Translations under genes and position numbers: made by a program | Shown here: one piece after another, positions 540 through 59,051 of the stretch | Layout: each line of letters opens with the position of its first letter | Numbering within the stretch: the first letter of the stretch is position 1 | The notes under the pieces: model-generated | What the model saw: the letters and a program-made list of their open reading frames with translations, nothing else | What the model was told of the DNA's origin: nothing | Databases searched by the model: none | IMG/VR virus record: IMGVR_UViG_2671180676_000004 | Location: 2,122-66,121 of that record | Reading direction: 5' to 3' (one strand) | Origin: a virus | Lineage: Duplodnaviria; Heunggongvirae; Uroviricota; Caudoviricetes | DNA: 64,000 nt

Positions 540-965
540 ATGTTAGGTTTATTCAAAAAGAAAACTCGTAAAGCTGTTATCGAGGTCAAAAAAATGGAGA
601 ACCGAGATGCGGTTGAAGCCACCGTGTGGGGCGCGTACATGATCTCCTATGCCGATGGCACATGCGACGCAAAGGAAATTTCCATTCTTGAGAAAACAAT
701 TGCAGCTCTGCCTGCGTTTTCTCCGTTTGCTGGTGAGATTGCCCAAATGAGCGCCAATATCCGTGCTCAATACGAAGCCTCACCGCGCCGCGCTAATGCC
801 CAGGCTTTACGTGAGCTGGCTGATGTGGCCGGGACTAATGATGCAGTAGATGTACTGTGTCTGTGCCTTGATATTGCCGACCAAGACGGTATTGGCGAAC
901 AAGAAGAGCTGGCCCTGAAAAAGATCGCACAGGCGCTTCAGTTGTCACTGGATGCTTATCTCTAA
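540..965 (+). CDS. TerB-like small acidic protein (tentative)
   Basis: 141-aa ORF; helical acidic protein resembling TerB-domain proteins; preceded by palindrome 502-516 and AGGAAAGCAC immediately before ATG. Confidence 0.35.
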   Translation: MLGLFKKKTRKAVIEVKKMENRDAVEATVWGAYMISYADGTCDAKEISILEKTIAALPAFSPFAGEIAQMSANIRAQYEASPRRANAQALRELADVAGTNDAVDVLCLCLDIADQDGIGEQEELALKKIAQALQLSLDAYL

Positions 966-1123
966 TGCTTGAGAGATTCCGGCTTGTGACCGTCATTGCT
1001 CTTCTGGTGATGGCGGTGTTGGTGGATTTTACGGGAAAGATGATGTCTGTCATTTCTGATGGCGTCCTCATTGGTCTGGCGATCTACTTCGCTTATCCGC
1101 TAGTCCGTAAAGCAACGTGTTAA
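965..1123 (+). CDS. small membrane protein (52 aa)
   Basis: ATG overlaps previous stop (TAATG); one hydrophobic helix (VTVIALLVMAVLV); followed by hairpin at 1128-1145; below the ORF-track length cutoff. Confidence 0.25.
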   Translation: MLERFRLVTVIALLVMAVLVDFTGKMMSVISDGVLIGLAIYFAYPLVRKATC

Positions 1124-3424: not shown

Positions 3425-6400
3425 CTATATCTGCCCACCTACTCCTTTGAACTTTTCAATAAACGTGACGATTTTCTGGAAAACCGTCTGTTTTTTCGTT
3501 TTATATTGCGGGTTTAACGGACTAAGTTTTGGTAATGTCTCGTTTAATTCTGTGCCATTTTCGGTGGCGTATTCGCGTTTTAAAGACGTGCGAATATAGC
3601 GTTTCGCCGCCTCTTCATTGAGATTTTCTTCTTTAATCAACGCTTCTGCTTCACGTAGCTGTTCGTGTTGAGCAAAGGTAAAGAACGCGTCAATGATGCT
3701 GGCTTTGTCTGGTAAATCATCCAGGTTCGTTTGCTGAATAAAATCGACCACCAGGCCCTCTTTAGCACGGTTCCCTAGGCTTGAACGAATTAAGCGTTTG
3801 ACCTCTTCGATCATTTCGCCCTTGCCTTTATTTTGTCTGTTGTGTTCGAAAATCAGTCCAAGGATATAATCCAGGTTTATTTCCTGAGACTTCAGCAAAT
3901 CGACCTCAAAAACTACGTCATCCCAGTCAGTGGTTGATTTCTCTTTTTTCTCAGCTTCTTTCTCACGGCGCTGCCAGTCGCGAATATCGTTATAGGCAGA
4001 ACGATAATCCTGAATCTTGCGATCAGCAGGGAGACGAATTGTTTGCAATTCAGCGAACTTTTCATCATCCACATAATGTTCTGCTTTGAATTTTTCTACC
4101 GCAACAGGATCGCTAAGATCGATTTGTTGCAGGGCTTTTAGCGTGGCAAATTCATCATAGTTTTGCAGGATGTTCTCGGCACGCAGGTATTCGCCAAACA
4201 GTTTAACGAAGTCTTTCTTCTCTTTTTCACTTTCAATACTGGCAGGGTCAGGGAACCGTTGTTCCAGTTCTGAAACTACTGCCATAAAGCCGCGTTTAGC
4301 TTCACCTGTAGCAGCATCAGTAAAGCCTTCCATATACTCTGCATAACTCTTTTCTAACACTACATTTTTGGTGTTTTTGTCACCAAACAGCGTTATGGCA
4401 TCGATGGTTGAGCGTTCCAGATCGCGGAAAGTGACGATATTACCGAAGGTTTTAGTCGCGTCATAAATGCGGTTGGTACGGGAAAATGCCTGCATCAGGC
4501 CGTGAAAACGCAAGTTTTTATCGACGAATAGCGTGTTTAATGTTGGAGCATCGAAGCCGGTTAAAAACATCCCCACGACGATTAACAAGTCAACATCCTG
4601 ATTTTTAACCCGCTGAGCCAGGTCCCGATAGTAGTTCTGAAAACCCTTGCTATCAGTGCTGAAATTCATTTGAAAATGGTCGTTATACTCACGAATTGCA
4701 GCGTCCAGAAACTCTTTAGCACTGCTGTCCATTGCACTGGTATCAAAAGATTCATCGGATATTTCACCAATGGCATTTTGTTCTTCATTAGCGGCAAAGG
4801 AGAAGATTGTCGCAACACGCAGTGGTTTATAGGTAGCAGATTTATTAGCTGCTTCCTCTTGTAACCGTTTAAACGTCGCGTAATAGGCTTTCGCGGCATC
4901 CACGCTGCTCACTGCCAACATAGCATTAAAACCTTTTGAGCCAGGGAAGGTACGGTGGGTTTTCTGGCGGAAATTATTCAGAATATATTGCGTGATTTCC
5001 TGAATACGCATGGGATGAAGAAACGCCTGCTGATTTTCAGCCGCACTCAGTTTTTTCTCGTCAGTTTCTGTCTCTAAAGACTTAAACTGTGGCCGCACAT
5101 CGTTGTAGTCCACCTTGAATTTGAGCACTTTTTCGTCACGAATCGCATCGGTAATTACATACGAATGCAATTCACGACCAAATACGCTGGCGGTTGTTTC
5201 TGAGCCTAAGGCGTTTTCCGGGAAAATAGGGGTGCCGGTAAAACCAAACTGATAATAACGTTTGAATTTCTTCTTCAGGTTTTTCTGCGCTTCTCCAAAC
5301 TGGCTGCGGTGGCATTCATCAAATATAAACACCACTTGCTGATTATATACAGGCAGGTCGCTTTCTGCTTTCATCAGGTTATTGAGTTTCTGAATAGTAG
5401 TGACGATAATTTTGTTATCGTCCTTATCCAGATTTCGTTTAAGGCCTGCGGTATTTTCCGAGCCGTTGACGCTGTCTGGCGAAAAACGCTGATATTCCTT
5501 CATGGTCTGGTAATCGAGGTCTTTCCTGTCGACCACAAAGAAGACTTTATCAATAAAGTCCAGCTCTGTTGCCAGACGCGCGGCTTTAAAGCTGGTGAGG
5601 GTTTTACCAGAACCGGTAGTGTGCCAGATATACCCACCGCTTTCCGGTTTTGACCAGTTCTTCGCTGTAAAGGAACTCTTAATTTTCCACAGAATGCGCT
5701 CGGTGGCGGCAATCTGGTACGGTCGCATCACCAGTAGCGTCTGACTACTGTCAAAAACGCTGTAGTTCACCAGAACATTCAGCAGAGTATGTTTCTGGAA
5801 AAAGGTAGCGGTAAAGTCTTTGAGGTCTTTAATCAGCGTGTTGTCTGATTTCGCCCAATTCATGGTGAAGTCAAAACTGTTTTTATCGCGCTTTGTGGTG
5901 TTGGCAAAATAACGGGTATCAGTGCCGTTGGAAATGACGAACAGCTGCAGATACTTAAACAGGGAATTTTCGCTGTTAAAACTCTCTTTACTGTAACGAT
6001 GTATCTGGTTGAAAGCCTCACGAATCGCCACCCCGCGTTTTTTTAGTTCGATTTGCACCAGCGGTAAACCATTAACCAGGATCGTGACGTCATAACGGTT
6101 AGCATGAGAACCCGTCTGTTCAAACTGCTGGATAATCTGCACCTTATTGCGCATGAGATTCTTTTTATCTATCAAATAGATGTTCTCAAGTCGCCCGTCG
6201 TCAAAAATAAAGTCGCAGATATAGTCGATATGGATTTTACGGGTTTTATCCAGAATACCATCGCTGGGGTTGTCCAGATACTGCTCCGTGAAGCGCCGCC
6301 ACTCGCTGTCATTAAACATCACACCATTGAGGCTCTGAAGCTGTTCCCGAACATTGGACAGCATTGCCGACTGTGATTTTACGGAAATAAATTCATAACC

Positions 6401-6541
6401 CTGATTCCGCAGGTCCTGAATCAGTTCACGTTCCAGGTCCGATTCGCTCTGGTAGCTGTCGCTTGTTTGCTCAGCTTTGATGTACTTATCAAGGACGATA
6501 AAGTTATTGGATTCAGCAATGGTGTGTGTTTGATGAGTCAT
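3425..6541 (-). CDS. hsdR: type I restriction enzyme R subunit (type IC, EcoR124I-like)
   Basis: 1038-aa ORF; SF2 helicase motifs (TGSGKT Walker A, DECH box); last gene of minus-strand M-S-R order; length typical of type IC HsdR. Confidence 0.9.
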
Positions 6542-6663
6542 AGCGCATCCTTTGTGCCGCCTGGCAAGAGCCGGAAGGGCGTTAAGAGTGACTTCCGGCG
6601 CGTAAAAAAATAGTCTATATACTGACCGGGTGTTAAGGTGGCCCGATCGGTAGCAATGGTCAA

Positions 6664-7902
6664 TTAATTACTGACAGTTTCAGGTTTCGGGAAACTGAAC
6701 AGTAAATCACGGTAGTATTCGTATTGTTTCTGGCGCAACTCGATTTCACGCGGGAGACCTTCGGTGATGGAGTTGGTCAGGGTGTCGAATTTATCGAGCA
6801 GAGCAGATATTCGCTCTTGTTTCTGTTTATCAGGCAATGGCACTGGTAATGTTTTTATAATATCTGCATTCAAGTTACTGACCGACCCGCTATTGATTTT
6901 ACTTTCCCAATAATTTTTCACCTTTTTTGATGAAAGATAGTGATACAGATAATCAGCATTTAATTTTTCACCAAAATTGCTGATTGATGCCCATCCATCA
7001 TGGATAGCTCCGGTTATCCTTAAAATATATGGTCTGCCAAAGCTCATAGAGTTAGAAATGACGAAATCACCGGGGTTCAAGATTCGCGATTTTTGGGCAC
7101 CCTCTGCAGTTATTTTTTGTAAGGTTTTGTCAATGTATTTAGAGCCGGGGATAGTATCTCCGATTTTAATCCATGGGATACCATTTCCTTGTTCAGTAAG
7201 ATAATTAACAATTGGCCTGGGGGATGCCCCACGTTGTATTTTGGCTACTTCTCCCAATGCCTTCCACTCAACCTCACCCTCTTTAAAACTCAGCAACTGG
7301 TCGCGATAGTAGTTGTACTGTTTTTTACGCATGTTAAGCTCAGCGGTAAGCTCAGCGGTAAGTGCAGTAAACTTATCCAGAATCCGAACAATTTCAGACT
7401 GGATGGCAAGGGATTTTCCCGGGGCGCTGGGACAAGGGATGGGTATTTGATAGTTTAAAATTGCATCTTTACTGCCTCGAGGCATCTTTGCCCCTTTAGC
7501 GTGCTGCATACTGTAAGAAAAAAATGAATCCGACGATAATGCATAGTAGAGATATTCTGGACTAATAATTTTTTTACAGTCTGCTAAAATGCGTATAGCA
7601 AGGACATCACCACTGCACCCGCCATTATTCTCCGCCATCCAAACTTTCTTTAAATATGGGCGAATATTACCTAAAAGAATATCACCTGGCTCATAGGCAG
7701 TTAAACGTGCCGTATTAGGCTGATAGGTGGCGTCAATGCGACCGCCTTTATCAGCAAGGAGATTATCAACGCCAACGAATGAAGTGGCATCAAGTTTATC
7801 AGCATCAACTTTGGTTGTTGAATACCCGGCGATATCGCCCACTGCTTTCCACTCAACCTCAACCCCATCCAGCAATTTTTCCAGATAACTCAACTCGCTC
7901 AT
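6664..7902 (-). CDS. hsdS: type I restriction-modification specificity subunit (type IC)
   Basis: 412 aa; two target-recognition domains separated by conserved central region containing TAELTAEL and followed by conserved C-terminal region ending [13 protein letters not shown]; start overlaps hsdM stop. Confidence 0.85.
7337..7360. repeat. 12-bp tandem duplication (2 copies) encoding TAEL-TAEL in hsdS central region
   Basis: AGCTCAGCGGTA repeated at 7337-7348 and 7349-7360. Confidence 0.85.
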
Positions 7903-9461
7903 TTCTGCACCTCGCAGCCTTCAATTTCAGCCACAATCGCATCAATATCTTTACGCAACTGGTCGATTTTGCTGACCGTGGTTTTCAGCTCTGCATTCAA
8001 CTCAGCGATATCGATAATTTCGCGAGTATCTTTCACTTCAACATAGCTGCTCACCGACAGGTTATAGTCATTAGCAACAACAGTCTCAAACGCAACAGAT
8101 TTCGCCAGATGAGCAACATCTTCCTTGCTGGCAAATACCTGCATAATTTTTTCTATATGGGCATCGGTCAGAATGTTGTTGTTAGTCTCTTTTTTGAACA
8201 GTTCGCTGGCATCAATAAACTGAACTTTGGTATCCGTTTTATGTTTAGACAGCACCAGAATATTGACGGCAATGGTGGTGCCAAAGAACAGGTTCGGTGC
8301 CAGTGAAATCACGGTTTCGACATAGTTATTGTCAACCAGATACTGACGGATTTTCTGCTCCGCGCCGCCACGGTAAAAAATGCCCGGGAAGCAGACAATC
8401 GCAGCACGACCTTTGGCAGAAAGATAGTTCAGCGCATGTAATACAAACGCAAAGTCAGCTTTGGATTTGGGGGCCAGAACGCCAGCCGGGGCAAAACGTT
8501 CATCGTTAATCAGCGTCGGGTCATCGCTGCCAATCCATTTCACCGAATACGGCGGGTTAGAAACGATGGCATCAAACGGTTTTTCATCTCTGAAGTGCGG
8601 CTCAGTCAGCGTATTGCCCAGCTTGATATCAAACTTGTCGTAGTTGATGTTGTGCAAAAACATGTTCATACGCGCCAGGTTATAGGTCGTATGGTTGATC
8701 TCCTGACCGAAAAAGCCTTCTTCGATGATGTGGTCATCGAACTGCTTTTTCGCCTGCAACAACAGCGAACCGGAACCTGCTGCCGGGTCGTAGATTTTGT
8801 TAACGTGGGTCTGGCCGTGCATTGCCAATTGTGCAATCAGCTTAGAGACGTGCTGCGGTGTAAAGAACTCGCCGCCTGACTTACCAGCATTCGCGGCATA
8901 GTTAGAAATCAGGAACTCATAGGCATCGCCGAACAGGTCAATCTGATGTTCGTTGAAGTCACCAAGTTTTAACCCTTCAACCCCTTTCAGAACCGCAGCC
9001 AGGCGGGCATTTTTATCTTTAACGGTGTTACCCAGGCGGTTACTGGTGGTATCGAAATCAGCAAACAAACCTTTGATGTCAGCTTCTGAAGGATAACCGT
9101 AAGCAGAACTTTCGATAGCAACGAAGATGCTGTTTAAATCTGCGTTCAGTCTGTCATTGGTATTTGCTTTCGCCGCTACGTTGCAGAAAAGCTGACTGGG
9201 GTAGATGAAGTAGCCTTTAGTTTTGATGGCATCGTCTTTAATGTCATCAGTAATTACGCTGTCATCCAGTTTCGCATAACAGATACTGTCATCACCGGCT
9301 TCAATATAGCTGGAAAAATTTTCGCTGATAAAACGGTAGAAAAGTGCGCCCAGAACGTATTGCTTAAAATCCCATCCATCGACCGAACCCCTGACATCGT
9401 TAGCAATTTGCCAGATTTGACGATGAAGCTCTGCACGTTGTTGAATACTTGTCATTTTCAT
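7899..9461 (-). CDS. hsdM: type I restriction-modification DNA methyltransferase subunit
   Basis: 520 aa; N6-adenine methyltransferase motifs (NPPY at the catalytic site, AdoMet-binding DPAAGSGS); first gene of operon. Confidence 0.9.
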
Positions 9462-11375: not shown

Positions 11376-12476
11376 TCACACTGCGCGGAATGCGATCTCG
11401 CCAGGTATTACTTCGCCTTGCCAATACATTTGGGCAGCAACGCGATCTGCGAGGTCACGATAAATAGCCGTAAATTCGCTATCTGGACGACTAATAACGG
11501 TTGGTGTTCCGTTATCCAGATCTTCACGAAGAGAGATATGAAGTGGCATTTGGCCTAACAACTGCGTGTTGTATTTCTCGGCCAGTTTCTGTGCGCCACC
11601 GGTGCCAAAAATTGGCTCGTGATGACCGCAGTTACTGCAAATATGCACACTCATGTTTTCGACGATACCCAGTACCGGCACTTCGACTTTTTCGAACATC
11701 ACAATGCCTTTCTTCGCATCGATCAGCGCGATGTCTTGCGGCGTAGTTACCACAACCGCACCAGTTACAGGAATGTTCTGCGCCAGCGTCAACTGAATAT
11801 CACCAGTGCCCGGCGGCATATCGAGAACGAGATAGTCCAGATCAGGCCATAGAGTTTCCTGCAACATCTGCATCAGCGCCTTGCTGGCCATCGGTCCACG
11901 CCACACCATTGCATTGTCGTCGGTGACCAGATAACCAATAGAGTTGGTTGCCAGGCCATGAGACATGATAGGTGCCATGTGAGTACCGTCCGGTGAGGTT
12001 GGACGTTGGTTTTCCGCGCCCAGCATGGTTGGAATTGATGGACCATAGATATCGGCATCCAAAATACCAACTTTCGCACCTTCAGCAGCCAACGCCAGTG
12101 CCAGGTTTACCGCCGTGGAGGATTTACCCACGCCGCCCTTGCCTGAGCTGACGGCGATAATGTTCTTAACGCCATTAATGCCTGGTTGGTTTTTGACGCG
12201 CTTAAGCGTGGCAATGTTGTACGACAGCTTCCAGTCAATAGCCTTTGCGCCAGTGATACGGAGCAGATCACCACTACATTGCTCTTTCAGGTCTTCAAAA
12301 GGCTTATTCCACACGAAAGGCATGATTAGTTCGACATGCAGTGTGTCATCCATCAACGCAACATGGTGTAACGCTTTAAGCGTAGTCAGGTTGTGTTTCA
12401 GGGTTGGGTGCTGAAAATTAGCCAGCGTACCGGCTACCATTGCTCTCAGGGCATCCGGCGATTTGGACTCGCTCAT
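11376..12476 (-). CDS. apbC: Fe-S cluster carrier ATPase ApbC/Mrp
   Basis: 366 aa; P-loop GKGGVGKS; CxxC pair; divergent from metG as in Escherichia chromosomes. Confidence 0.9.
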   Translation of the reverse strand: MSESKSPDALRAMVAGTLANFQHPTLKHNLTTLKALHHVALMDDTLHVELIMPFVWNKPFEDLKEQCSGDLLRITGAKAIDWKLSYNIATLKRVKNQPGINGVKNIIAVSSGKGGVGKSSTAVNLALALAAEGAKVGILDADIYGPSIPTMLGAENQRPTSPDGTHMAPIMSHGLATNSIGYLVTDDNAMVWRGPMASKALMQMLQETLWPDLDYLVLDMPPGTGDIQLTLAQNIPVTGAVVVTTPQDIALIDAKKGIVMFEKVEVPVLGIVENMSVHICSNCGHHEPIFGTGGAQKLAEKYNTQLLGQMPLHISLREDLDNGTPTVISRPDSEFTAIYRDLADRVAAQMYWQGEVIPGEIAFRAV

Positions 12477-12633
12477 CCCGTCTCCTTTATTTTAATTTGC
12501 GCAATTGTCGCCTTGTAGTGTACTCCAGCTACGACATTTAATCATTTATGAGAAATGCTGTTATCACATGGCAGACATAAGGCCATTTTGTTACTATCAA
12601 GCCCCTTTTCACTACAAAGAAGTAATGCCTACT

Positions 12634-14667
12634 ATGACCCAAGTCGCGAAGAAAATTCTGGTGACGTGCGCGCTGCCGTACGCTAACGGCTCAATCCACC
12701 TCGGCCATATGCTGGAGCACATCCAGGCTGATGTCTGGGTTCGTTACCAGCGAATGCGCGGCCACGAGGTTAATTTCATCTGTGCCGACGATGCCCACGG
12801 TACGCCGATCATGCTGAAAGCACAGCAGCTTGGTATCACACCGGAGCAGATGATTGGCGAAATGAGTCAGGAACACCAGACTGATTTCGCAGGCTTTAAC
12901 ATCAGCTATGACAACTATCACTCGACGCACAGCGAAGAGAACCGTCAGTTGTCTGAGCTTATCTATACTCGCCTGAAAGAGAACGGTTTTATTAAAAACC
13001 GCACTATCTCTCAGTTGTACGACCCGGAAAAAGGCATGTTCCTGCCGGATCGTTTTGTAAAAGGCACCTGCCCGAAATGTAAAGCGCCAGATCAATACGG
13101 CGATAACTGTGAAGTCTGCGGCGCAACATATAGCCCGACTGAATTGATCGAGCCGAAATCGGTGGTTTCTGGCGCTACCCCGGTAATGCGTGATTCCGAA
13201 CACTTCTTCTTTGATCTACCTTCTTTCAGCGAAATGTTGCAGGCATGGACCCGCAGCGGCGCGTTGCAGGAGCAGGTGGCGAACAAAATGCAGGAATGGT
13301 TTGAATCCGGCCTGCAACAGTGGGATATATCCCGCGATGCGCCTTACTTCGGTTTTGAAATTCCGAACGCGCCGGGCAAATATTTCTACGTCTGGCTGGA
13401 CGCGCCGATTGGCTACATGGGTTCCTTCAAGAATCTGTGCGACAAGCGCGGCGATACCACCAGCTTCGATGAATACTGGAAGAAAGACTCCACCGCCGAG
13501 CTGTACCACTTCATCGGTAAAGATATTGTTTACTTCCACAGCCTGTTCTGGCCTGCCATGCTGGAAGGCAGCAACTTCCGCAAGCCGACCAACCTGTTTG
13601 TTCATGGCTATGTGACGGTGAACGGCGCGAAGATGTCCAAGTCTCGCGGCACCTTTATTAAAGCCAGCACCTGGCTGAATCATTTTGACGCTGACAGCCT
13701 GCGTTACTACTACACTGCGAAACTCTCTTCGCGTATTGATGATATCGATCTCAACCTGGAGGATTTCGTTCAGCGTGTGAATGCCGATATCGTTAACAAA
13801 GTGGTTAACCTGGCGTCCCGTAACGCTGGCTTTATCAATAAGCGTTTTGACGGTGTGCTGGCAGGCGAACTGGCTGACCCGCAACTGTATAAAACCTTCA
13901 CTGATGCTGCTGAAGTGATTGGTGAAGCATGGGAAAGCCGCGAATTTGGTAAAGCTATCCGTGAAATCATGGCATTGGCTGACCTGGCTAACCGCTATGT
14001 CGATGAACAGGCTCCGTGGGTGGTGGCGAAGCAGGAAGGACGCGATGCCGATCTGCAGGCGATTTGCTCTATGGGCATTAACCTGTTCCGCGTGCTGATG
14101 ACGTACCTGAAGCCGGTACTGCCGAAACTGACTGAACGTGCAGAAGCATTCCTGAATACAGAACTGACCTGGGATGGTATCCAGCAACCGCTGCTGGGCC
14201 ATAAAGTGAATCCGTTCAAGGCACTGTATAACCGCATCGATATGAAGCAGGTTGAAGCACTGGTGGAAGCATCCAAAGAAGAAGTGAAAGCCACAGCCGC
14301 ACCGGTAACTGGCCCACTGGCTGACGACCCGATTCAGGAAACTATCACCTTTGACGACTTCGCCAAAGTTGACCTGCGCGTGGCGCTGATTGAAAACGCA
14401 GAGTTTGTAGAAGGTTCTGACAAACTGCTTCGCCTGACGCTGGATCTCGGTGGTGAAAAGCGTAATGTCTTCTCAGGCATCCGTTCCGCTTATCCAGATC
14501 CACAGGCACTGATTGGTCGTCACACCATTATGGTGGCTAACCTGGCACCACGTAAAATGCGCTTCGGTATCTCTGAAGGCATGGTGATGGCTGCTGGCCC
14601 CGGCGGGAAAGATATCTTCCTGTTAAGCCCGGATGCTGGTGCTAAACCTGGCCACCAGGTTAAGTAA
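12634..14667 (+). CDS. metG: methionine--tRNA ligase
   Basis: 677 aa from ATG 12634 ([26 protein letters not shown]); HIGH-type and KMSKS motifs; zinc knuckle CPKC...CEVC; C-terminal tRNA-binding domain; intrinsic terminator at 14690-14713. Confidence 0.95.
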
Positions 14668-51323: not shown

Positions 51324-54300
51324 ATGTGGTACAGGGAAGGTACTATCACATTTACACAGGGTAGCAATACTCTGGTTGGGGCAGGGACAGCCTGGAACGT
51401 AACAGCTAATGGTGTGTTGCCGGGGATGATCGTCATTGGCCCCGACAATAAGCTGTATGAGATCAAGCGCGTAATAAGCGATACGAATATTGTTCTCTCA
51501 GAACCTTATACCGGCGAAACTCAGTCTGAGGTTCCGTGCCGAATCATTACGACCTATGAAGGCGACTTAACACAGTTTAGCGCGCGCTTTACAGCACTAA
51601 TGTCGCGTATGTCGGCTGATTCCAAGTCTATGCGCAGTTGGTTGACTGCTCTGGATGAGGTGACAATCGAGCGTGAAGACGGTACAGAAGTAACCGTTAA
51701 GCCGCTAATGCAGATCGTCAACGAGCACAACGAAAACGTTGAGTGGTATAAAAATAACACTGACGCGATTGATGCTGCTGGCGACAAAGCTCGTGAGGCG
51801 GCGGCCAGTGCTGCCGCAGCAGCAGAAAGCGCCAATACCGCTGGAGAAAAAGCCTCTCAAGCGTCTCAAAGTGCATCCGCTGCGGCATCCTCACAAAGTG
51901 CCGCAAGTGCGAGTGCAACTGCTGCGAAAAAATCTGAAACGAATGCCGCAGCGTCACAACAATCAGCAGCCACTTCTGCATCCACCGCGACCACGAAAGC
52001 GTCAGAAGCTGCCACCTCAGCCCGGGATGCGGCGGCCTCAAAAGAGGCAGCGAAATCATCAGAAACGAGCGCAGCCTCGAGCGCCAGTAATGCCGCTTCC
52101 TCGGCAACGGCGGCAGGAAATTCCGCGAAGGCGGCAAAAACGTCCGAGACGAACGCCAGGTCTTCTGAAACGGCAGCGGGACAGAGCGCCTCGGCTGCGG
52201 CAGGCTCAAAAACAGCGGCTGCGTCGTCTGCCAGTGCCGCGTCAACAAGTGCCGGGCAGGCCTCAGCCAGTGCCACCGCCGCCGGAAAATCGGCAGAAAG
52301 TGCCGCATCGTCTGCTTCAACAGCCACAACGAAGGCTGGCGAAGCCACTGAACAGGCCAGCGCAGCAGCGAGGTCTGCTTCCGCAGCGAAGACATCCGAA
52401 ACGAACGCGAAAGCGTCGGAAACCCGTGCAGAATCCTCAAAAACGGCAGCCGCATCGTCCGCCAGTTCGGCAGCGTCATCGGCATCATCGGCGTCTGCTT
52501 CAAAAGATGAGGCGACCAGACAAGCGTCCGCAGCGAAGGGCAGCGCCACGACAGCATCCACGAAAGCAACAGAGGCGGCAGGCAGTGCGACGGCAGCATC
52601 TCAGAGCAAAACTGCTGCTGAATCCGCTGCGACCCGTGCGGAAGCTGCTGCTGATCGTGCTGAAGAGATTGCCGGTGCAGTTGCGATGGAAGATGCAAGC
52701 CTTACCACCAAAGGTGTTGTGAAACTTAGCAGTGCTGTCGACAGCACCAGTGAATCTTTAGCCGCGACACCAAAAGCAGTTAAGACCGCATATGATAATG
52801 CTGAAAAACGACTACAGAAGGATCAGAATGGTGCTGATATCCCCGACAAGGGCCGCTTCCTGAATAACATTAATGTTTACAGCAAAGGTGAAGTGGATCA
52901 GAAAAAGGGGATGCGATACGTTGTGGTCAATGCCCCGGCGGGTGTCCAGGAAGGTAAATATTATCCGTTAGTGATAAAAAGGAATGACAGCCATCGGGCA
53001 TCCCGCGTTGTCATTTCAACGCCAAGTCGCACAGCTAATCACAGAATGAATAACTGTGAGTTTAATGGTTTTGTTTGCGCAGGCGGCTGGACGGACCGGG
53101 GTAGCTATGCCTGTGGTATGTTCTGGGCTTATTCATCATCGGAACGCGCTATTCATTCCATTCTGATGAGTAATAAAGGCGATACCGTAGACAGCGTATT
53201 CTATATAGAAGGTGGGGCATTTCCCGTAGAGGTCTTTTTAGAAGAAGGACTTTCTGTTACTGCTCCTGCTTCTGATTATGTTGTTGCTGAAACGACTTAT
53301 AAATTTGGCGCAACTGATCCTTATTCTGAATCAGTTGCGGTAAATTTAATTTTAGATTTTAAACAAGGTAATGGATTTTATAGTTCGTATCCTGTTTTGA
53401 GTAAGTCAGACATTAGCGGTAATAAGGTTTACGCTAATGATGAAGTTATTGTCCGTAGTCAGAATGCGTTAAGGATGATTGCTGGCGATTACGGTGTCAT
53501 ATGGCGAAATGATGGAGCAAATACTTACTTGCTCATGACTGATAAAGGCGACCAGTACGGTGGCTGGAACGGTCTTCGACCATTTGCAGTAAATAACGCA
53601 ACAGGTGAAGTGACGATCAATACACCACTTAATTCTCCAAAAGGGGTTAAGGGGAACTCTGATACAGCTACGAAACTTCAGACTGCAAGAAAAATATCCG
53701 GTGTTCCATTTGATGGCTCTACTGATATCACTTTAACCGCCGCGCATGTTGCCGCTTTCGCAAGAAGAGCAACAGGGTCATATGCTGATGCTGATGGCGG
53801 CGTGCCGTGGAATGCTGAATCTGGTGCTTATAATGTAACTAGAACGGGCGACAGTTATATTCTTGCCAACTTTTATACTGGTGTAGGTAGTTGCCGTACG
53901 CTTCAAATTAAGGCTCACTATAAAAATGGTGGGTTGTTTTATCGTTCATCTCGCGATGGAAGTGGTTTTGAAAGTGGTTGGGAGCAGGTTTACACGACTG
54001 GATTTAGACCTCAGCCGGCTGATATAAACGCACCAACCGCTGCCGCCGGATGGTTAAATAGTGGTAACGGAACAGCATTTACGACTGCTCAGTTTATAAC
54101 GTGGCTAAATAATCAGGGTGCATTTTCAAACAAATATTGGATTGCACGGTGCTCATGGACTTACGCCAACAATAATTATATAGACGACACTGGATGTGGC
54201 AGGATCGATCTATCTGGTTCCGTGATTGAGGTGTTTAGTAATAAGTCAACAAGCCACTACACTATTCGTGTTACAACGACAACAACATCGGGCCATGGTG

Positions 54301-55613
54301 GTGTTAATAATGCGGAGTTTATTTATGTGTACAATGGCAGTGATTACTCGCCAGGCTGGCGTCGTTCTTATAATACTAGAAACAAACCAACAGCTTCTGA
54401 TGTAGGAGCATTATCGCTTTCTGGAGGAGCGTTAACTGGCGGATTAACTGCTGCTGGCGAGATTATTTCAAAATCGGCGAATGGTCTGCGCATTGCCTAC
54501 GGAAACTACGGATTCTTTATCCGAAACGATGGTTCAAGCACATACTTCATGTTGACCGATTCGGGTAACAGCCTGGGAACCTATAATAGTTTAAGGCCGC
54601 TTATCATTAACAATGCCAATGGTGCTGTTAGGATCGGTAATGGACTCAATGTTACTGGCGGCATCAATGGTAGTTTGGACGGTAATGCTTCAACAGCTAC
54701 GAAGTTGCAAACAGCGAGAAACATCAATGGTGTTAAGTTTGATGGTTCAGGCGATATCAATATTAATACATTGGTATCTCGTGGCCGAGTTACGGCGTTA
54801 AGCGGCTCTACTCAAGGCACTGCTGGCATTCAAATGTATGAGGCGTACAACAATAGCTACCCGACCATGTATGGCAACGTATTGCACATGAAAGGTGCGA
54901 GTGCTGCTGGTGAGGGAGAGTTGCTTATTGGCTGGAGTGGTACGAGCGGTGCACATGCGCCAGTTTTCATTCGCTCACGAAGAGATAACACAGGTGCGGC
55001 ATGGTCAGCGTGGGCGCAGGTATATACCGCTAAGGATTCAATCCCTGGTGTGAATACAACTGGTAATCAGAACACTACTGGTAATGCCGCAACCGCCACA
55101 AAATTGCAGACAGCAAGGAAAATTGCTGGTGTGGCATTTGATGGCTCTGCCGATATAACTTTGACTGCGGCTAACCTTAATGCTTACACGAAAACAGAGG
55201 TAACAAACCTTCTAAGTTCCTATGTGAAGAGCAGTGCTCTTCCAAGCATGACTGTGCGAACTTCCTCTGTTTCAGGTGGGGATATGGGCATGAGCTTGTC
55301 CGCATTCATTAGCCACCTAAAATCAAATGGGGCGTTTAGCAAAAGTTATTGGATTGGCTTTGGCGATGCTATGGGATTCAATGCTGGCAGTATCAACAAT
55401 ATAACGGGATTTGGTGCTGTAGAATTAGCAGAATCTATAATCGAAGTTTTTAATCTACCTAACGGTGATTATACAATTCGTTTAACAACGTCACATAAAG
55501 CTGACTACGGTGGAGTTACAAACGCAATCCTCGTTTATCACTACCGTAGTAATAGAAGTCCGTCAGGTCAATGGCTGAAATTTGCAGGTACTGTTGGGGC
55601 AACAAGTAACTGA
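51324..55613 (+). CDS. side tail fibre protein
   Basis: 1429 aa; 300-aa Ala/Ser-rich low-complexity region; three copies of ATKLQTARxIxGVxFDGSxDI motif in C-terminal half. Confidence 0.8.
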   Translation: MWYREGTITFTQGSNTLVGAGTAWNVTANGVLPGMIVIGPDNKLYEIKRVISDTNIVLSEPYTGETQSEVPCRIITTYEGDLTQFSARFTALMSRMSADSKSMRSWLTALDEVTIEREDGTEVTVKPLMQIVNEHNENVEWYKNNTDAIDAAGDKAREAAASAAAAAESANTAGEKASQASQSASAAASSQSAASASATAAKKSETNAAASQQSAATSASTATTKASEAATSARDAAASKEAAKSSETSAASSASNAASSATAAGNSAKAAKTSETNARSSETAAGQSASAAAGSKTAAASSASAASTSAGQASASATAAGKSAESAASSASTATTKAGEATEQASAAARSASAAKTSETNAKASETRAESSKTAAASSASSAASSASSASASKDEATRQASAAKGSATTASTKATEAAGSATAASQSKTAAESAATRAEAAADRAEEIAGAVAMEDASLTTKGVVKLSSAVDSTSESLAATPKAVKTAYDNAEKRLQKDQNGADIPDKGRFLNNINVYSKGEVDQKKGMRYVVVNAPAGVQEGKYYPLVIKRNDSHRASRVVISTPSRTANHRMNNCEFNGFVCAGGWTDRGSYACGMFWAYSSSERAIHSILMSNKGDTVDSVFYIEGGAFPVEVFLEEGLSVTAPASDYVVAETTYKFGATDPYSESVAVNLILDFKQGNGFYSSYPVLSKSDISGNKVYANDEVIVRSQNALRMIAGDYGVIWRNDGANTYLLMTDKGDQYGGWNGLRPFAVNNATGEVTINTPLNSPKGVKGNSDTATKLQTARKISGVPFDGSTDITLTAAHVAAFARRATGSYADADGGVPWNAESGAYNVTRTGDSYILANFYTGVGSCRTLQIKAHYKNGGLFYRSSRDGSGFESGWEQVYTTGFRPQPADINAPTAAAGWLNSGNGTAFTTAQFITWLNNQGAFSNKYWIARCSWTYANNNYIDDTGCGRIDLSGSVIEVFSNKSTSHYTIRVTTTTTSGHGGVNNAEFIYVYNGSDYSPGWRRSYNTRNKPTASDVGALSLSGGALTGGLTAAGEIISKSANGLRIAYGNYGFFIRNDGSSTYFMLTDSGNSLGTYNSLRPLIINNANGAVRIGNGLNVTGGINGSLDGNASTATKLQTARNINGVKFDGSGDININTLVSRGRVTALSGSTQGTAGIQMYEAYNNSYPTMYGNVLHMKGASAAGEGELLIGWSGTSGAHAPVFIRSRRDNTGAAWSAWAQVYTAKDSIPGVNTTGNQNTTGNAATATKLQTARKIAGVAFDGSADITLTAANLNAYTKTEVTNLLSSYVKSSALPSMTVRTSSVSGGDMGMSLSAFISHLKSNGAFSKSYWIGFGDAMGFNAGSINNITGFGAVELAESIIEVFNLPNGDYTIRLTTSHKADYGGVTNAILVYHYRSNRSPSGQWLKFAGTVGATSN
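51780..52700. repeat. Ala/Ser-rich low-complexity coding region of side tail fibre
   Basis: recurrent KTSETNA / SASAAA units; generates spurious long ORFs in other frames and on the opposite strand. Confidence 0.7.
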
Positions 55614-55803: not shown

Positions 55804-56139
55804 ATGGAGGAAAACATGTCGAACGAGATGGCGGGCGTTACAACAGAGCAAGTTGAGCGTATAGCCGCGATCGTTGCTCGGGAGGTTGTTGGCAAATTAG
55901 GTAAAGAGCTACGTGAAGAAATTGGCCAGGAGGTCAATGATCAGCTGAAAACCTACTTTGGTGATATGACCCCGGCGCAACATAGTATTCAACACTCCAA
56001 TCTGGACAAACTCCTTAACCGGTTAGATTCCATCTCAAGTGGGTTCTTTGGCGGCATTGTTTCTAAAATAACGTCGTTCATTATTACCGCACTGCTTTTG
56101 GGGTTAGCCGCGTATGGCGTAAAAAGTGGACTGCAATAA
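55804..56139 (+). CDS. membrane protein, holin candidate
   Basis: 111 aa with single C-terminal transmembrane helix; first gene of lysis-type cassette. Confidence 0.3.
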   Translation: MEENMSNEMAGVTTEQVERIAAIVAREVVGKLGKELREEIGQEVNDQLKTYFGDMTPAQHSIQHSNLDKLLNRLDSISSGFFGGIVSKITSFIITALLLGLAAYGVKSGLQ

Positions 56140-56152
56140 CAGGAGATCAAGG

Positions 56153-56845
56153 ATGAAGACTCCGAGAGGCATTCGTAATAATAACCCCGGTAATCTTGAT
56201 AAAGGATCACCGTGGCAAGGTCTGGTTGCGAATCCAGACGAACCGCGCTTTTGCACGTTTAAAGACCCTGTTTGGGGGATTCGTGCGCTGGCGGTGACTC
56301 TAATTACCTACCACGATAAACGTCGCGCAAAAGACGGCACAAGTATCGATACCATTCGTGAAGTTATTGAACGCTGGGCACCGCCGAATGAAAACAATAC
56401 TGACGCCTACATTAATGAGGTGTCTAAAGCCGTTGGTGTAACCGCAGACATGATCATCGATCTGCATGATTACGACATCCTTCGACCTTTGGTTGAGGCA
56501 ATCATTCGCCACGAGAATGGCCGAGGCCCGCTAAAAACGCTGAACACCTGGTATGCGGCAGAAGTTATTGAGGAAGGTCTGCGTCGAGCTGGCGTTGTTA
56601 AGCCGGTGAAAACCGTGAAGGCTGTTCCTGTAACTAAAGAAACCGCAGGCGCAACTGTTACAGCAGGTATTGGTCTGGCGCAGCTGGCCGATGTTATGCC
56701 GCAGGTTTCCGCTGCTATGGATAAAGCACAAGGTCATATCTCTAGCGGGGATACAGTACGCATCATCTTCGGTATTGCCACTATTGTTGTGGCAGGATTC
56801 ATTGCCTGGTCGCAGGTAAGAAAACATCAGAAAGGGATGGTCTAA
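56153..56845 (+). CDS. putative endolysin / cell-wall-active protein with C-terminal membrane anchor
   Basis: ATG 56153 with AGGAG upstream; conserved-looking N-terminal motif GIRNNNPGNL; C-terminal hydrophobic helix; sits between holin candidate and spanins. Confidence 0.35.
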   Translation: MKTPRGIRNNNPGNLDKGSPWQGLVANPDEPRFCTFKDPVWGIRALAVTLITYHDKRRAKDGTSIDTIREVIERWAPPNENNTDAYINEVSKAVGVTADMIIDLHDYDILRPLVEAIIRHENGRGPLKTLNTWYAAEVIEEGLRRAGVVKPVKTVKAVPVTKETAGATVTAGIGLAQLADVMPQVSAAMDKAQGHISSGDTVRIIFGIATIVVAGFIAWSQVRKHQKGMV

Positions 56846-56846
56846 T

Positions 56847-57098
56847 ATGCTAGGCAGCCTGATGACAAAGCTAAAAGTTGCTTTGATTACGCTGGCTGCC
56901 GTTCTTTTCGTTCTTGTCGGCGCTTACACGATGGGCGGGAATGCGGCGCGACGAGCAATGGAAGAGAAGGCAAAACAGGAAGACAGAAAACGACTTCAAA
57001 GCACAGTGGAAGTGGTGAATGAGACGAGCAATAAAATACGTCAGAAAGATGCTTCTGCCGTTCATCGTGAGTTGTATGATAAGTGGGTGCGTCATTAA
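56847..57098 (+). CDS. i-spanin (Rz-like)
   Basis: 83 aa, N-terminal transmembrane helix then charged helical region; overlaps lipoprotein gene in another frame. Confidence 0.5.
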   Translation: MLGSLMTKLKVALITLAAVLFVLVGAYTMGGNAARRAMEEKAKQEDRKRLQSTVEVVNETSNKIRQKDASAVHRELYDKWVRH

Positions 57099-57234
57099 AC
57101 CACAAACCGCCAGCGTATTGTTCTGCGATGGAGCTGGGCCTATCTATATCAGCAATAATGATGTGATGACCGAAGAAACCGAACGCCAAATCCTTTTTCA
57201 CAATACGATGGGAGAGAGAGTTTGCGGTTGGTGA
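57019..57234 (+). CDS. o-spanin (Rz1-like lipoprotein)
   Basis: 71 aa in a different frame overlapping Rz-like gene; signal peptide with lipobox ISGC. Confidence 0.5.
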   Translation: MRRAIKYVRKMLLPFIVSCMISGCVIKPQTASVLFCDGAGPIYISNNDVMTEETERQILFHNTMGERVCGW

Positions 57235-57265
57235 TGCGAAGTTCCCCTCACTTGAGGGGAGTACA

Positions 57266-57787
57266 TTATTCTTCGAACAATTTTTCGATAGATTTTGTAG
57301 GATAGAACAAAGAACGCTCGTTGTTACCAACCAGCTGGATAAAGCCTAAACTTTTATAAAACGCCTTGGCTTTGTCATTTAACGCCTCAACGAAAAGTCC
57401 ATGAATGCCTACAGCAAGAGATGCATTGTACACAACGCGCATTGCATGTGTTACAAGCATTGAGCCAAATCCTTGACCTTGAAGGGACTTGTCCAAAGCC
57501 AGCCTACCCAAAGTAACACTTGGAACATTCCGATAAGGTACCTTCTTTTGCTGGCTTCTTGAAGGTAAGGACTCCTTTTCAAAGCAGCTGCCTGACAAAG
57601 TGTAATACCCTAACACTTTTGGTCTGTCTTCTTTCGTGAAAAGCACATAAGCGCGAAGAATTTTTCCCTCATGCTGCCTTTTTAAGTGGTTGGTTAAAAA
57701 GGCATTTAGTGATTCTTCACCGCAATCAAAACCATTCAAATCATAATCTTTCTCTCCAGAGAAAATTTCTATCTTTATATTATCCAC
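57266..57787 (-). CDS. GNAT-family toxin (TacT/AtaT-type aminoacyl-tRNA acetyltransferase)
   Basis: 173 aa; GNAT motif QGQGFGSMLV; immediately downstream of DUF1778-type antitoxin gene. Confidence 0.75.
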   Translation of the reverse strand: MDNIKIEIFSGEKDYDLNGFDCGEESLNAFLTNHLKRQHEGKILRAYVLFTKEDRPKVLGYYTLSGSCFEKESLPSRSQQKKVPYRNVPSVTLGRLALDKSLQGQGFGSMLVTHAMRVVYNASLAVGIHGLFVEALNDKAKAFYKSLGFIQLVGNNERSLFYPTKSIEKLFEE

Positions 57788-57794
57788 GAGTAAA

Positions 57795-58103
57795 CTACTC
57801 CATGCTTTTCAGACGATCAGCAGCTCGTTTCAGCTTGTCGTTCGGTGCCGGAGGATTGCTTATAGCGTCCATAACCAGATTCCAGGATTCTTCATTCAGA
57901 ACTAGTCTACGGTGTTGCTCTATAACTTTCACGGCACGTTCAGATGCACTGCTAACCATAAACTGAGTAATGCTCTGGTTAGACATTGCGGCAGCTTCCT
58001 CGATGATGCTTTTATCGTCATCGGTTAATCTCAAATCGATGCGCTGCTTTTTTAGTGCTGACATGTATTCCTCCTGATGGCCGTGATGTAGGAAGGCCAT
58101 CAA
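57795..58103 (-). CDS. DUF1778-type (TacA-like) antitoxin
   Basis: About 90-100 aa (real start may be internal ATG at 58064); RHH-like N-terminus KKQRIDLRLTDDDK; classic partner of GNAT toxins. Confidence 0.7.
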   Translation of the reverse strand: MMAFLHHGHQEEYMSALKKQRIDLRLTDDDKSIIEEAAAMSNQSITQFMVSSASERAVKVIEQHRRLVLNEESWNLVMDAISNPPAPNDKLKRAADRLKSME

Positions 58104-58382: not shown

Positions 58383-59051
58383 ATGACCAAGATCTTTGTG
58401 GTTGGCGGCACAAAGGGCGGGCCTGGCAAATCCACCGTTGCCCAGCAAATTGCCGTTTGCCTGAAAGTCAAAAAGAAGAAGAAGGTTTATATTACCGATA
58501 TAGATATTCAGCGCACGACAACGAGCTGGTGTGAAGACCGTCGACAGAACGAAGACCTTGAGCTGATTCCTTTTGCATACGTTCAGGATGACATCATTAA
58601 GCACCTAAAATCGCTTCAGGGTAGAGCTGAGTTTGTAGTGGTAGATGCTGGTGGCTTCGACTCCGAAATTCAGCGACAAGCGATGCTGATGGCTGACGTT
58701 ATCATTATCCCGCTGCGTCCTAAGCGTCGTGATTTGAAATCTTTACGTGACATCGATCCTATTATCGACAATGTTCGCAATGTAAACGATAAAGTGAAGG
58801 TCCGCGCGGTCATGAACCAGTGCCCGGCTTTGCCATCACAAGTGTCTCGCATTCTGGCGGCTAAAGAGATTGTCGAGACGTTTGGCATCGAGTCTGCGCC
58901 AGTCAATCTATATAACCGCAACGTCTACGATGATGCGGAAGAGTCTGGTCGTTCTATCTTCGAAATGACCGGTAGCGAGCGCGACAAAAAGGCGGAAGCC
59001 GAGTTTGAAGAATTTGTAGATTATCTGTTGAGTCTGGAGGAAGAAGAATAA
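58383..59051 (+). CDS. parA: ParA-family partition ATPase (small, type Ib)
   Basis: 222 aa; deviant Walker A GGTKGGPGKST; palindrome 58334-58348 upstream. Confidence 0.8.
   Translation: MTKIFVVGGTKGGPGKSTVAQQIAVCLKVKKKKKVYITDIDIQRTTTSWCEDRRQNEDLELIPFAYVQDDIIKHLKSLQGRAEFVVVDAGGFDSEIQRQAMLMADVIIIPLRPKRRDLKSLRDIDPIIDNVRNVNDKVKVRAVMNQCPALPSQVSRILAAKEIVETFGIESAPVNLYNRNVYDDAEESGRSIFEMTGSERDKKAEAEFEEFVDYLLSLEEEE

Follow-up and report, generated by a model that had tools for sequence, protein, structure and literature searches.

The window, a 64,000-nucleotide stretch of viral DNA, contains a cassette of four co-directional genes that encode, in order, a small membrane protein, an endolysin and the two components of a spanin (Table 1). 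All four ORFs were present as the sequence-only reading of this DNA had described them, and every one found a homology match far beyond chance. At the nucleotide level, the cassette was 98% identical to Escherichia phage Cyrano and 82% identical to SSU5; in Cyrano the four genes bear the annotations Holin, Endolysin, Rz and Rz1, and the same four are annotated as lysis genes in SSU5. The cassette was also found in 408 PLSDB plasmids, its carriers forming a very common phage-plasmid group in E. coli, Enterobacter, Salmonella and Klebsiella. Three of the four cassette genes were named "hypothetical protein" in the one RefSeq plasmid record examined, and the o-spanin was unlisted, the PLSDB gene table being incomplete. 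The twelve best PLSDB matches each had three hypothetical proteins in the cassette, and the practical value of the analysis lies in the correction of annotation.

Table 1. Positions of the cassette and its features in the window
Feature	Position	Strand	Description
Lysis cassette	55816-57234	+	Four co-directional genes: 107-aa membrane protein, 230-aa endolysin, 83-aa i-spanin, 71-aa o-spanin
First gene, phrog_5093 protein	55816..56139	+	107 aa; GGAGG RBS at start 55816; holin-position protein
Enc34/M4Lys-type endolysin	56153..56845	+	230 aa; homology and AF2/Foldseek
Enzymatically active domain	56153..56617	+	Residues 1-155; all-helical, lysozyme alpha-lobe-like fold
Predicted catalytic E121 codon	56513-56515	+	Aligned to Enc34 Glu131
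Conserved linker PVTKET and helix H1, then conserved SSG turn	56618..56746	+	H1 about residues 166-192, marginally hydrophobic, Gly/Ala/Thr/Ser-rich
C-terminal transmembrane helix and cationic tail RKHQKGMV	56747..56845	+	Helix about residues 199-222; KD 2.07 at residues 204-222
i-spanin (Rz-like)	56847..57098	+	83 aa; N-terminal TMD residues 11-29, short helical periplasmic domain
o-spanin (Rz1-like), outer-membrane lipoprotein	57019..57234	+	71-aa precursor; lipobox ISGC residues 21-24; Cys24 codon 57088-57090
Terminator-like GC-rich hairpin	57241..57262	+	Between cassette and convergent toxin-antitoxin pair; consensus scan only

Homology, structure prediction and the literature on close homologues support the earlier reading of the locus as a lysis cassette with a C-terminally anchored endolysin and an overlapped spanin pair. 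The functions given here for the endolysin are transferred from homologues at 55–59% identity. We consider it probable that the locus serves late lysis in an SSU5-like siphovirus phage-plasmid, combining an Enc34/M4Lys-type endolysin with overlapped spanins and working by the mechanism proposed below. The terminator-like hairpin listed in Table 1 comes from a consensus scan in which such sites were no more numerous in the region than in shuffled sequences.

The two distal genes form the overlapped spanin pair proposed previously, an 83-aa i-spanin with an ISGC lipoprotein in another frame. The i-spanin matched phrog_1026 ("Rz-like spanin", E 9e-25) and shows the N-terminal TMD and periplasmic helical domain that characterize such proteins; the o-spanin matched phrog_1275 ("Rz-like spanin", E 2.3e-24). 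As in other overlapped pairs, the o-spanin gene begins inside the i-spanin gene in a different frame, shares 80 nt with it and ends beyond it. The lipobox context M-I-S-G-C24-V-I-K has Val and no Asp at position +2, consistent with sorting to the outer membrane. Kongari et al. 2018 (PMC6139136) classify the SSU5 i-spanin as a singleton of the overlapped class and assign the SSU5 o-spanin to the Chi family. By homology, the pair is a two-component spanin of overlapped architecture, which would disrupt the outer membrane once the wall has been degraded.

An Enc34/M4Lys-type endolysin with a C-terminal membrane module

The middle gene, whose product begins MKTPRGIRNNNPGNL, had been read as encoding a 231-aa protein of uncertain catalytic type; the ORF stands, its length being 230 aa plus the stop codon. 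The protein was 100% identical to the Cyrano "Endolysin" and matched phrog_873 endolysin with an E value of 3.4e-88, while a phmmer search against PDB returned the Enc34 enzyme (PDB 7Q47; 7q47_A, E 6.8e-54, 59% identity, query residues 3–151). Chi-like endolysins were about 54–55% identical over the full length, C-terminal module included, and in a full-length BLASTP comparison the SPN19 endolysin aligned up to residue 228 at 55% identity. Structure prediction, proposed earlier as a check, gave an AF2 model in which residues 39–145 hold five helices and the 10-residue-block mean pLDDT is 79–96 over residues 21–150; its top Foldseek match was 7q47_B (E 7e-17, target-normalised TM 0.80, 59% identity). 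W75, Y86 and E121 align with Enc34 Trp79, Tyr95 and Glu131 and were invariant in 39–40 homologues of 56–89% identity.

The Enc34 ORF39 endolysin, from a Hafnia phage, belongs to family PHA02564, and its truncated form ORF39deltaC has demonstrated muralytic activity (Cernooka et al. 2022, PMC8943055). M4Lys, from Salmonella phage BSPM4, has N-acetylglucosaminidase activity and lyses E. coli without a holin; this lysis is insensitive to azide and abolished by deletion of the TMD, and the TMD alone is bacteriostatic (Bai et al. 2020, PMC7143992). The Enc34 authors noted that the holin independence may be an artefact of overexpression (PMC8943055). Given the close Enc34 homology with its crystal structure, the matching predicted fold, the invariant Trp, Tyr and Glu and the activity of M4Lys, the catalytic type can be regarded as known: homology makes the window enzyme a peptidoglycan glycosidase of the Enc34/M4Lys type, with Glu121 as the predicted catalytic residue and Trp75 and Tyr86 predicted to position the substrate. 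Endolysins with a C-terminal membrane anchor are an already known class, the Enc34 structure having been solved and both Enc34 and BSPM4 M4Lys having been assayed. Peptidoglycan degradation and TMD-dependent lysis from within have been demonstrated only in Enc34 ORF39deltaC and M4Lys, and the window enzyme would share them by analogy.

That the protein lacks motifs of the common lysozyme and amidase families, as the sequence-only reading had remarked, agrees with our searches: no Pfam family scored above threshold and NCBIfam gave no match, GH24, GH19, lambda-R-type lysozymes, Amidase_2/3, Peptidase_M15 and GH108 included. None of the four cassette proteins gave a usable result against Pfam or NCBIfam, and the Enc34-type domain had gone unrecognised because neither database models it. 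A canonical endolysin elsewhere would have argued against the assignment; we found none in the window or the annotated Cyrano genome and no second Enc34-type domain in the window, and a phmmer search of all window ORFs with six representative endolysins returned no match.

The transmembrane helix noticed earlier at the C terminus was recovered as one strong hydrophobic segment (residues 204–222), the only segment of the endolysin to pass the TMD threshold. The preceding helix H1, of which 60% is G/A/S/T, does not pass: in sums of position-independent Hessa-scale values, it came to about +7.7 kcal/mol, compared with about +0.8 kcal/mol for the C-terminal TMD, and H1 is therefore not a stand-alone TMD. 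Nine positions of the segment that holds the linker, H1 and the SSG turn were invariant (P159, T161, E163, A167, G174, Q177, P183, A188 and S198). AF2 gave no reliable structure for residues 159–200, where pLDDT is below 50. Sequence conservation of the C-terminal module extends over SSU5-like, chi-like, Pasteurella and Alcaligenaceae elements, and a tblastn query with the last 82 residues found chi-like endolysins, Enc34 and BSPM4. Averaged over 39 homologues, the flanks of the TMD contained 2.4 K+R on the C-terminal side and 0.6 on the N-terminal side. Residues 1–195 contain no hydrophobic segment, so the N-terminal, weakly hydrophobic signal-arrest-release domain of SAR endolysins is absent.

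In the mechanism that we propose, the endolysin would have no N-terminal export signal and would be kept at the inner membrane by its conserved C-terminal module, made up of a weakly hydrophobic Gly/Ala/Thr-rich H1, the SSG turn, the true TMD and the cationic tail. We favour, with roughly even confidence, a helical hairpin or tail-anchor arrangement in which the catalytic domain stays cytoplasmic until the membrane is breached. The module itself may act like an inbuilt holin and contribute the lesion in the membrane, which would account for three properties of M4Lys: lysis of E. coli by the protein on its own, the bacteriostatic effect of the isolated TMD and the loss of lysis when the TMD is removed.

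The positive charge of the C-flank, combined with a single true TMD, speaks against this arrangement, since the positive-inside rule predicts an N-out/C-in orientation with a periplasmic catalytic domain. Tail-anchored proteins of E. coli whose N-domains are cytoplasmic likewise end in Arg or Lys, and for that reason the charge bias is not decisive. Taken at face value, it would make the endolysin a reverse signal-anchor protein whose exported catalytic domain is tethered in the periplasm by the single C-terminal TMD and is set free or activated once the membrane has been depolarised by the upstream protein, in analogy to a SAR endolysin with its pinholin. Such a topology suits a protein whose sole TMD-grade segment is followed by cationic residues, and N-out/C-in was the orientation predicted for M4Lys by Phobius and Phyre2 (PMC7143992). 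Full-length M4Lys and Enc34 ORF39 are moreover toxic without a holin while their deltaTMD forms are harmless, and a SAR-like scenario was raised by the Enc34 authors (PMC8943055). However, the TMD lies 8 residues from the C terminus and therefore emerges from the ribosome only once synthesis is complete; a folded hydrophilic domain of ~200 residues, lacking a signal peptide, would need to pass through the membrane after translation, a crossing for which the Enc34 authors state that no mechanism is known (PMC8943055), and azide did not block M4Lys lysis (PMC7143992). We consider the reverse signal-anchor the less likely arrangement. Far less probable still is that the protein acts at infection, as a virion-associated lysin or structural "virion protein" and not as an endolysin. 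The CDD family does bear the name "virion protein", and Enc34-type domains occur inside large virion and tail proteins, among them the Gp29 core protein (9vvp, E 6e-22), the phrog_7182 tail injection transglycosylase, the phrog_2276 tape measure and T7-like internal virion protein D; the window protein, however, is free-standing and membrane-anchored, it sits between the holin-position gene and the spanins and outside the structural gene block of a genome with no other endolysin, and its orthologues at 55% identity lyse from within.

The phrog_5093 protein upstream of the endolysin

The ORF of the first gene can be read from 55804, giving 111 aa, but that start has no RBS, and PGAP, Cyrano and the phrog_5093 profile all start at 55816. 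Its 107-aa product consists of a charged helical N-terminal part of ~80 aa, the juxtamembrane motif YFGDMTPAQHSIQH, one C-terminal TMD (residues 85–103 of the 111-aa form, KD 2.02) and a tail of ~6 residues; the stop codon lies 14 nt before the endolysin start. The AF2 model, of low confidence (pLDDT 56), shows two long helices. The protein matched phrog_5093 with an E value of 2e-68, a family labelled as of unknown function for all its members (44/44). G49, H56 and H60 are invariant in the 44 sequences and form a G…H-x3-H motif, and an R and a D are near-invariant. The protein matched only phrog_5093 and no described holin family, Pfam and NCBIfam having no model for it, and no significant similarity emerged from BLASTP and hhalign comparisons with the chi-like holin-position protein and with an Alcaligenaceae protein of 99 aa whose TMD is C-terminal (E 17, 0.45 and 0.41). 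The 107-aa protein and the 99-aa Alcaligenaceae protein have an F-x-D…P-x2-H-x3-H string in common, which is only a hint because the similarity was not significant.

The phrog_5093 gene was always the first of its lysis cassette, accompanied by endolysins of Enc34, Peptidase_M15_3, GH108 or SLT-like type. Each of the examined cassettes with an endolysin other than the Enc34 type also contained a separate multi-TMD holin-like gene, for example a phrog_8226 "holin" in L014. This comparison covers four independent non-SSU5 types, and the second membrane proteins were recognised mostly by hydropathy, with one PHROG holin match (E 1.4e-5). No separate multi-TMD holin-like gene was found in the cassette of the window. 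Two IMG/VR scans for further contexts gave mostly SSU5-like loci, and a metagenome scan gave one locus. Searching GTDB genomes with a degenerate DNA pattern yielded four loci, and these four were all apparently SSU5-like by host genus or cassette; a tblastn search of deposited phages with remote family members found nothing new. Two small 2-TMD ORFs (249–446 and 965–1123) were considered as distant holins and rejected: their matches are phrog_6006 (unknown) and a TciB-like family, and about 55 kb separate them from the cassette.

The sequence-only reading had named the first gene a holin candidate. The membrane protein in the holin position is there; the label "holin" reflects position only, and in other phages phrog_5093 stands beside a separate holin-like gene, from which it follows that the protein may be a regulator or co-holin and not the sole holin. 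We suggest that it is a lysis-timing membrane protein, and we give about an even chance to a co-holin or antiholin-type regulator. Somewhat less probably, it is a canonical holin and the only one of the cassette, representing a new single-TMD class whose TMD is C-terminal; the TMD of the endolysin would then do no more than enrich the enzyme at the membrane. The protein is small, has at least one TMD and is encoded beside the endolysin, in the classical position directly upstream and with closely spaced start codons; the cassette has no other small multi-TMD gene; the family adjoins four unrelated endolysin types; and, among the records of Cyrano, SSU5, pJN2-26 and the RefSeq plasmid, in which the gene is called Holin, putative holin or hypothetical protein, the first three use a holin name. 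On the other hand, every cassette of a different type that was examined has its separate multi-TMD holin-like gene, and the highly charged C-terminal tail and dual-start motif typical of holins are missing, the short tail having one Lys and the Met1/Met5 pair not being conserved in the family. The invariant G…H-x3-H motif with the near-invariant R and D suggests a specific interaction over generic hole formation, and the homologous M4Lys lyses E. coli with no holin at all. Extending the preferred regulator role, we tentatively propose, as a possibility that we would not rate as likely, that hole formation in SSU5- and chi-type cassettes resides in the endolysin's own C-terminal module, making it a natural endolysin–holin fusion, and that phrog_5093 represents a previously unrecognised class of lysis regulator (antiholin or co-holin), the first gene with at least four unrelated endolysin types.

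Comparison with known lysis systems

The window endolysin resembles Enc34 ORF39 in its catalytic domain, predicted fold and Trp/Tyr/Glu triad and in the succession of an N-terminal catalytic and a C-terminal membrane module, and in both cassettes the endolysin gene has that of a small membrane protein on one side and the overlapped spanin genes on the other. The window element is, however, a phage-plasmid of ~108 kb, whereas Enc34 is a chi-like lytic siphovirus of ~60 kb; the window enzyme lacks two short catalytic-domain insertions of the Enc34 enzyme, and the upstream "holin" is unrelated, its TMD being N-terminal in Enc34 and chi and C-terminal in the window. The likeness to M4Lys and to the chi-like "lysis protein A" endolysins (phage Siskin, PMC6498227) extends over the full length at the same 54–55% identity, although the upstream partner gene differs in these cassettes too. 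By analogy, the published behaviour of M4Lys would be the best functional guide for the window endolysin.

The architecture recurs with another catalytic domain in LysAP of Acidovorax phage AP1, a 227-aa enzyme that has cationic residues after its C-terminal TMD, lyses E. coli on its own and loses this ability on TMD deletion (PMC8879335). LysAP is similar to the window endolysin in size and layout, but its catalytic domain is a GH24 lysozyme and not of the Enc34 type, and the likeness is architectural. With the SAR endolysins that work alongside pinholins (P1 Lyz and phage 21 R21), the window enzyme shares a membrane-tethered muralytic design in which lysis is possible without a large-hole holin, and the Gly/Ala-rich, weakly hydrophobic composition of H1 is similar to that of SAR domains. 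The SAR domain, in contrast, is N-terminal and uses Sec, whereas the window endolysin has a hydrophilic N terminus and its hydrophobic module at the extreme C terminus.

The spanin pair is like other two-component spanins of the overlapped class, with a P2-like architecture of an i-spanin with an N-terminal TMD and an out-of-frame o-spanin that extends beyond it. Its i-spanin differs in being short and only weakly similar to the chi-like counterpart (E 0.003). The o-spanin shares 40% identity with the chi-like SPN19 protein (E 2e-18). With a chi-like endolysin and o-spanin family joined to a different upstream partner, SSU5-like elements offer a second natural context for tests of how a catalytic domain held by a C-terminal TMD gets to the cell wall.

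The lysis cassette and its carrier

The sequence-only reading had proposed a lysis cassette with a C-terminally anchored endolysin and overlapped spanins, and this interpretation is supported; its four co-directional genes were confirmed in both the ORF listing and the raw sequence. The same genes are annotated for lysis (holin, endolysin and Rz/Rz1 spanins) in Escherichia phage Cyrano and Salmonella phage SSU5, which are 98% and 82% identical to the cassette region, respectively. The cassette is already known: its endolysin is 100% identical to an annotated phage endolysin, and the class of this protein has been characterised structurally and biochemically. The region was found in 408 PLSDB plasmids, the majority non-mobilizable, with sizes of ~107–112 kb in those records that were read or ranked among the top matches and hosts mainly in Escherichia, Enterobacter, Salmonella and Citrobacter. 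The window element is an SSU5-like phage-plasmid; in keeping with this, the window has, like Cyrano, terminase-to-tail genes, a ParA and a MetRS outside the cassette.

Features of the cassette and of other genes in the window
Feature	Position (strand)	Description
First gene	from ATG 55816	107 aa; 111 aa if read from 55804
Endolysin (second gene)	56153-56845	230 aa; N-terminus MKTPRGIRNNNPGNL, C-terminus RKHQKGMV
i-Spanin (third gene)	56847-57098	83 aa; N-terminal TMD
o-Spanin (fourth gene)	57019-57234	71 aa; starts within third gene in another frame, 80-nt overlap, ends beyond it
GC-rich hairpin	57241-57262	after cassette, ahead of convergent toxin-antitoxin pair
GNAT toxin/TacA-like antitoxin	57266-58103 (-)	173 aa and 102 aa (PF08681, E 9e-26); convergent with cassette
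ParA partition gene	58383-59051	follows toxin-antitoxin pair
Tail fibre	51324-55613 (+)	1429 aa; directly upstream of cassette; low-complexity Ala/Ser/Thr-rich, ~residues 150-470
Type I restriction-modification	3425-9461 (-)	HsdR 1038 aa, HsdS 412 aa, HsdM 520 aa
Mrp/NUBPL-type P-loop ATPase	11376-12476 (-)	Pfam ParA (PF10609); adjoins MetRS gene
Methionyl-tRNA synthetase	12505-14667 (+)	full-length; tRNA-synt_1g, E 5e-166; C-terminal tRNA-binding domain
P1 TciA/TciB-like block	249-446 and 540-1123 (+)	small membrane proteins ~55 kb from cassette; 65-aa 2-TMD ORF, phrog_6006 (unknown function); 52-aa 2-TMD ORF, TciB-like phrog_1470

Cyrano names the MetRS and P-loop ATPase neighbours MetRS and "MinD", and the pair beyond the hairpin a KacT-type toxin and putative antitoxin. 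HsdR, HsdS and HsdM all gave strong Pfam matches and form a complete system, which may be a cargo insertion, since no product in the Cyrano annotation is named as type I restriction-modification. The tail fibre gene is longer than its Cyrano homologue (4026 nt) and is a variable region, because the plasmid NZ_CP157149 has a tail protein gene of only 2928 nt despite a cassette 100% identical to that of the window. In the incomplete PLSDB gene table of that plasmid, the first three cassette genes are "hypothetical protein" and the o-spanin is not listed.

The endolysin and the spanins

The ORF of the second gene was as the sequence-only reading gave it, the product being 230 rather than 231 residues long. 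Neither Pfam nor NCBIfam has a model for the protein, which explains why it seemed devoid of motifs and is hypothetical in RefSeq. Against PHROG it matched phrog_873 "endolysin" (E 3e-88), and its closest PDB match was chain 7Q47_A (E 6.8e-54), the endolysin of Hafnia phage Enc34. An AlphaFold2 model built with 39 homologues was confident for the catalytic domain (mean pLDDT 79–96 in 10-residue blocks, residues 21–150), and 7q47 ranked top when the model was searched with Foldseek (E 7e-17, target-normalised TM 0.80, 59% identity). The N-terminal PHA02564 domain of the Enc34 enzyme has an all-helical fold distantly akin to GH73 and GH23 and a catalytic Glu131, with Trp79 and Tyr95; it is muralytic on permeabilised cells of E. 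coli, P. aeruginosa and H. alvei (PMC8943055). By alignment to 7Q47_A, the equivalents are E121, W75 and Y86, all invariant across 39–40 full-length homologues of 56–89% identity. The chi-like SPN19 orthologue is 55% identical over the full length, C-terminal module included. M4Lys of the chi-like Salmonella phage BSPM4 shows N-acetylglucosaminidase activity and lyses E. coli when expressed alone; azide does not block this lysis, removal of the C-terminal TMD abolishes it and the TMD on its own is bacteriostatic (PMC7143992). Of the two points that the sequence-only reading called uncertain, catalytic type and topology, the former is answered by the literature on these homologues.

The search for a canonical endolysin elsewhere left the reading standing, with none in the annotation of the 108-kb Cyrano genome or in the window. 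The Enc34-type family profile matched a single one of 480 window ORFs, the cassette endolysin, and the tape measure protein carried tape-measure domains only. Six representative endolysins (M15 and GH108 sequences from other loci, lambda R, T4 E, P22 gp19 and T7 amidase) had no match in the window, a search of limited sensitivity.

The i-spanin matched phrog_1026 (E 9e-25) and the o-spanin, with lipobox I-S-G-C and Val at +2, phrog_1275 (E 2e-24). The o-spanin is 40% identical to that of chi-like phages (E 2e-18), whereas similarity is weak for the i-spanin (E 0.003); this agrees with SpaninDataBase, where the SSU5 o-spanin is in the Chi family and its i-spanin is an overlapped-class singleton (PMC6139136). 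Enc34-type endolysins are accompanied by an i-spanin of, or resembling, phrog_1026 and by a similar o-spanin-like lipobox ORF in chi-like phages, in one Pasteurella prophage and in one Alcaligenaceae prophage. In Cyrano, the "Rz1 spanin" CDS (OV696614 28038-28157) is annotated from a start beyond the lipobox, which leaves its product without the signal peptide and the lipidated Cys; for SSU5, RefSeq gives two alternative Rz1 starts.

The first gene and the holin question

A GGAGG ribosome-binding site accompanies the ATG at 55816 but not the start at 55804, and 55816 is also where the gene starts in PGAP, in Cyrano and in the PHROG profile. The sole hydrophobic segment of the protein is C-terminal. 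Close relatives occur in SSU5-like elements only (12 phage records, and 30 protein clusters that all bear the name hypothetical), and an exhaustive profile search added 60 more distant ones of ~100–140 aa. All 44 of these that were examined matched phrog_5093 (unknown function) and no Pfam family. Members share a common architecture and a juxtamembrane motif, YFGDMtPxQHxIQHxR…D, with G49, H56 and H60 invariant and R62 and D71 nearly so. The protein at the chi-like holin position has an N-terminal TMD and is unrelated to this family. In an Alcaligenaceae prophage (L009 2205-2504), another Enc34-type endolysin is immediately preceded by a 99-aa protein whose TMD is likewise C-terminal and which contains F-P-D-G-D-P-E-S-H-R-R-Y-H, reminiscent of the phrog_5093 F-G-D…P…H-x3-H; this protein had no PHROG match and hhalign was not significant (E 0.41).

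In every case read, a lysis cassette opened with the remote phrog_5093 member, but with endolysins of varying type: Peptidase_M15_3 in L012 (35.2 bits, cut-off 23.2) and probably L011, Glyco_hydro_108 in L015 (84.7 bits) and SLT-like in L014 and L176 (phrog_669, scanned in L014 only), whose ORF layout recurs in L096, L097 and L121. Each of these cassettes has an additional multi-TMD holin-like gene, that of L014 matching phrog_8226 "holin" (E 1.4e-5); the window cassette has none. From four independent contexts, together with the M4Lys data, we hypothesise that a role as co-holin or regulator is likelier for the 107-aa protein than one as sole holin, and we suspect that part of the membrane lesion is made by the membrane module of the endolysin itself.

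Endolysin topology

The C-terminal module is conserved in sequence, beyond hydrophobicity (PVTKET-GAT..G.AQ.A..P....A....SSG..VRI.FG..TI..A..IA.SQVKKHQ.G.), with P159, T161, E163, A167, G174, Q177, P183, A188, S198, A218 and Q221 invariant. The protein has a single strong hydrophobic segment (residues 204–222, Kyte–Doolittle 2.07), preceded by a helix, H1 (residues 166–192), that is 60% Gly/Ala/Ser/Thr. Position-independent Hessa-scale values, summed across 19 residues, gave ~+0.8 kcal/mol for the terminal helix and ~+7.7 kcal/mol for H1; of the two helices, only the terminal one is therefore a genuine TMD, and H1 is marginal. Positive charge is biased to the C-side of the TMD (K+R 2.4 after vs. 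0.6 before).

Such a module is compatible with an N-in/C-in hairpin like that predicted for the phage Siskin endolysin (PMC6498227), in which only the short SSG loop would traverse the membrane and the enzyme would remain cytoplasmic. If H1 does not insert, the data would instead match the prediction for M4Lys, an N-out/C-in topology (PMC7143992). The TMD lies just 8 residues from the C-terminus, so insertion must be post-translational, and according to the Enc34 authors no known pathway exports a folded ~200-residue N-terminal domain under such conditions (PMC8943055); for these reasons we favour a hairpin or tail-anchor. Of continuing interest are how endolysins of this class are oriented and exported, and the uncharacterised phrog_5093 family. 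LysAP of phage AP1 has the same architecture as the window endolysin, but its catalytic domain is an unrelated GH24 (PMC8879335).
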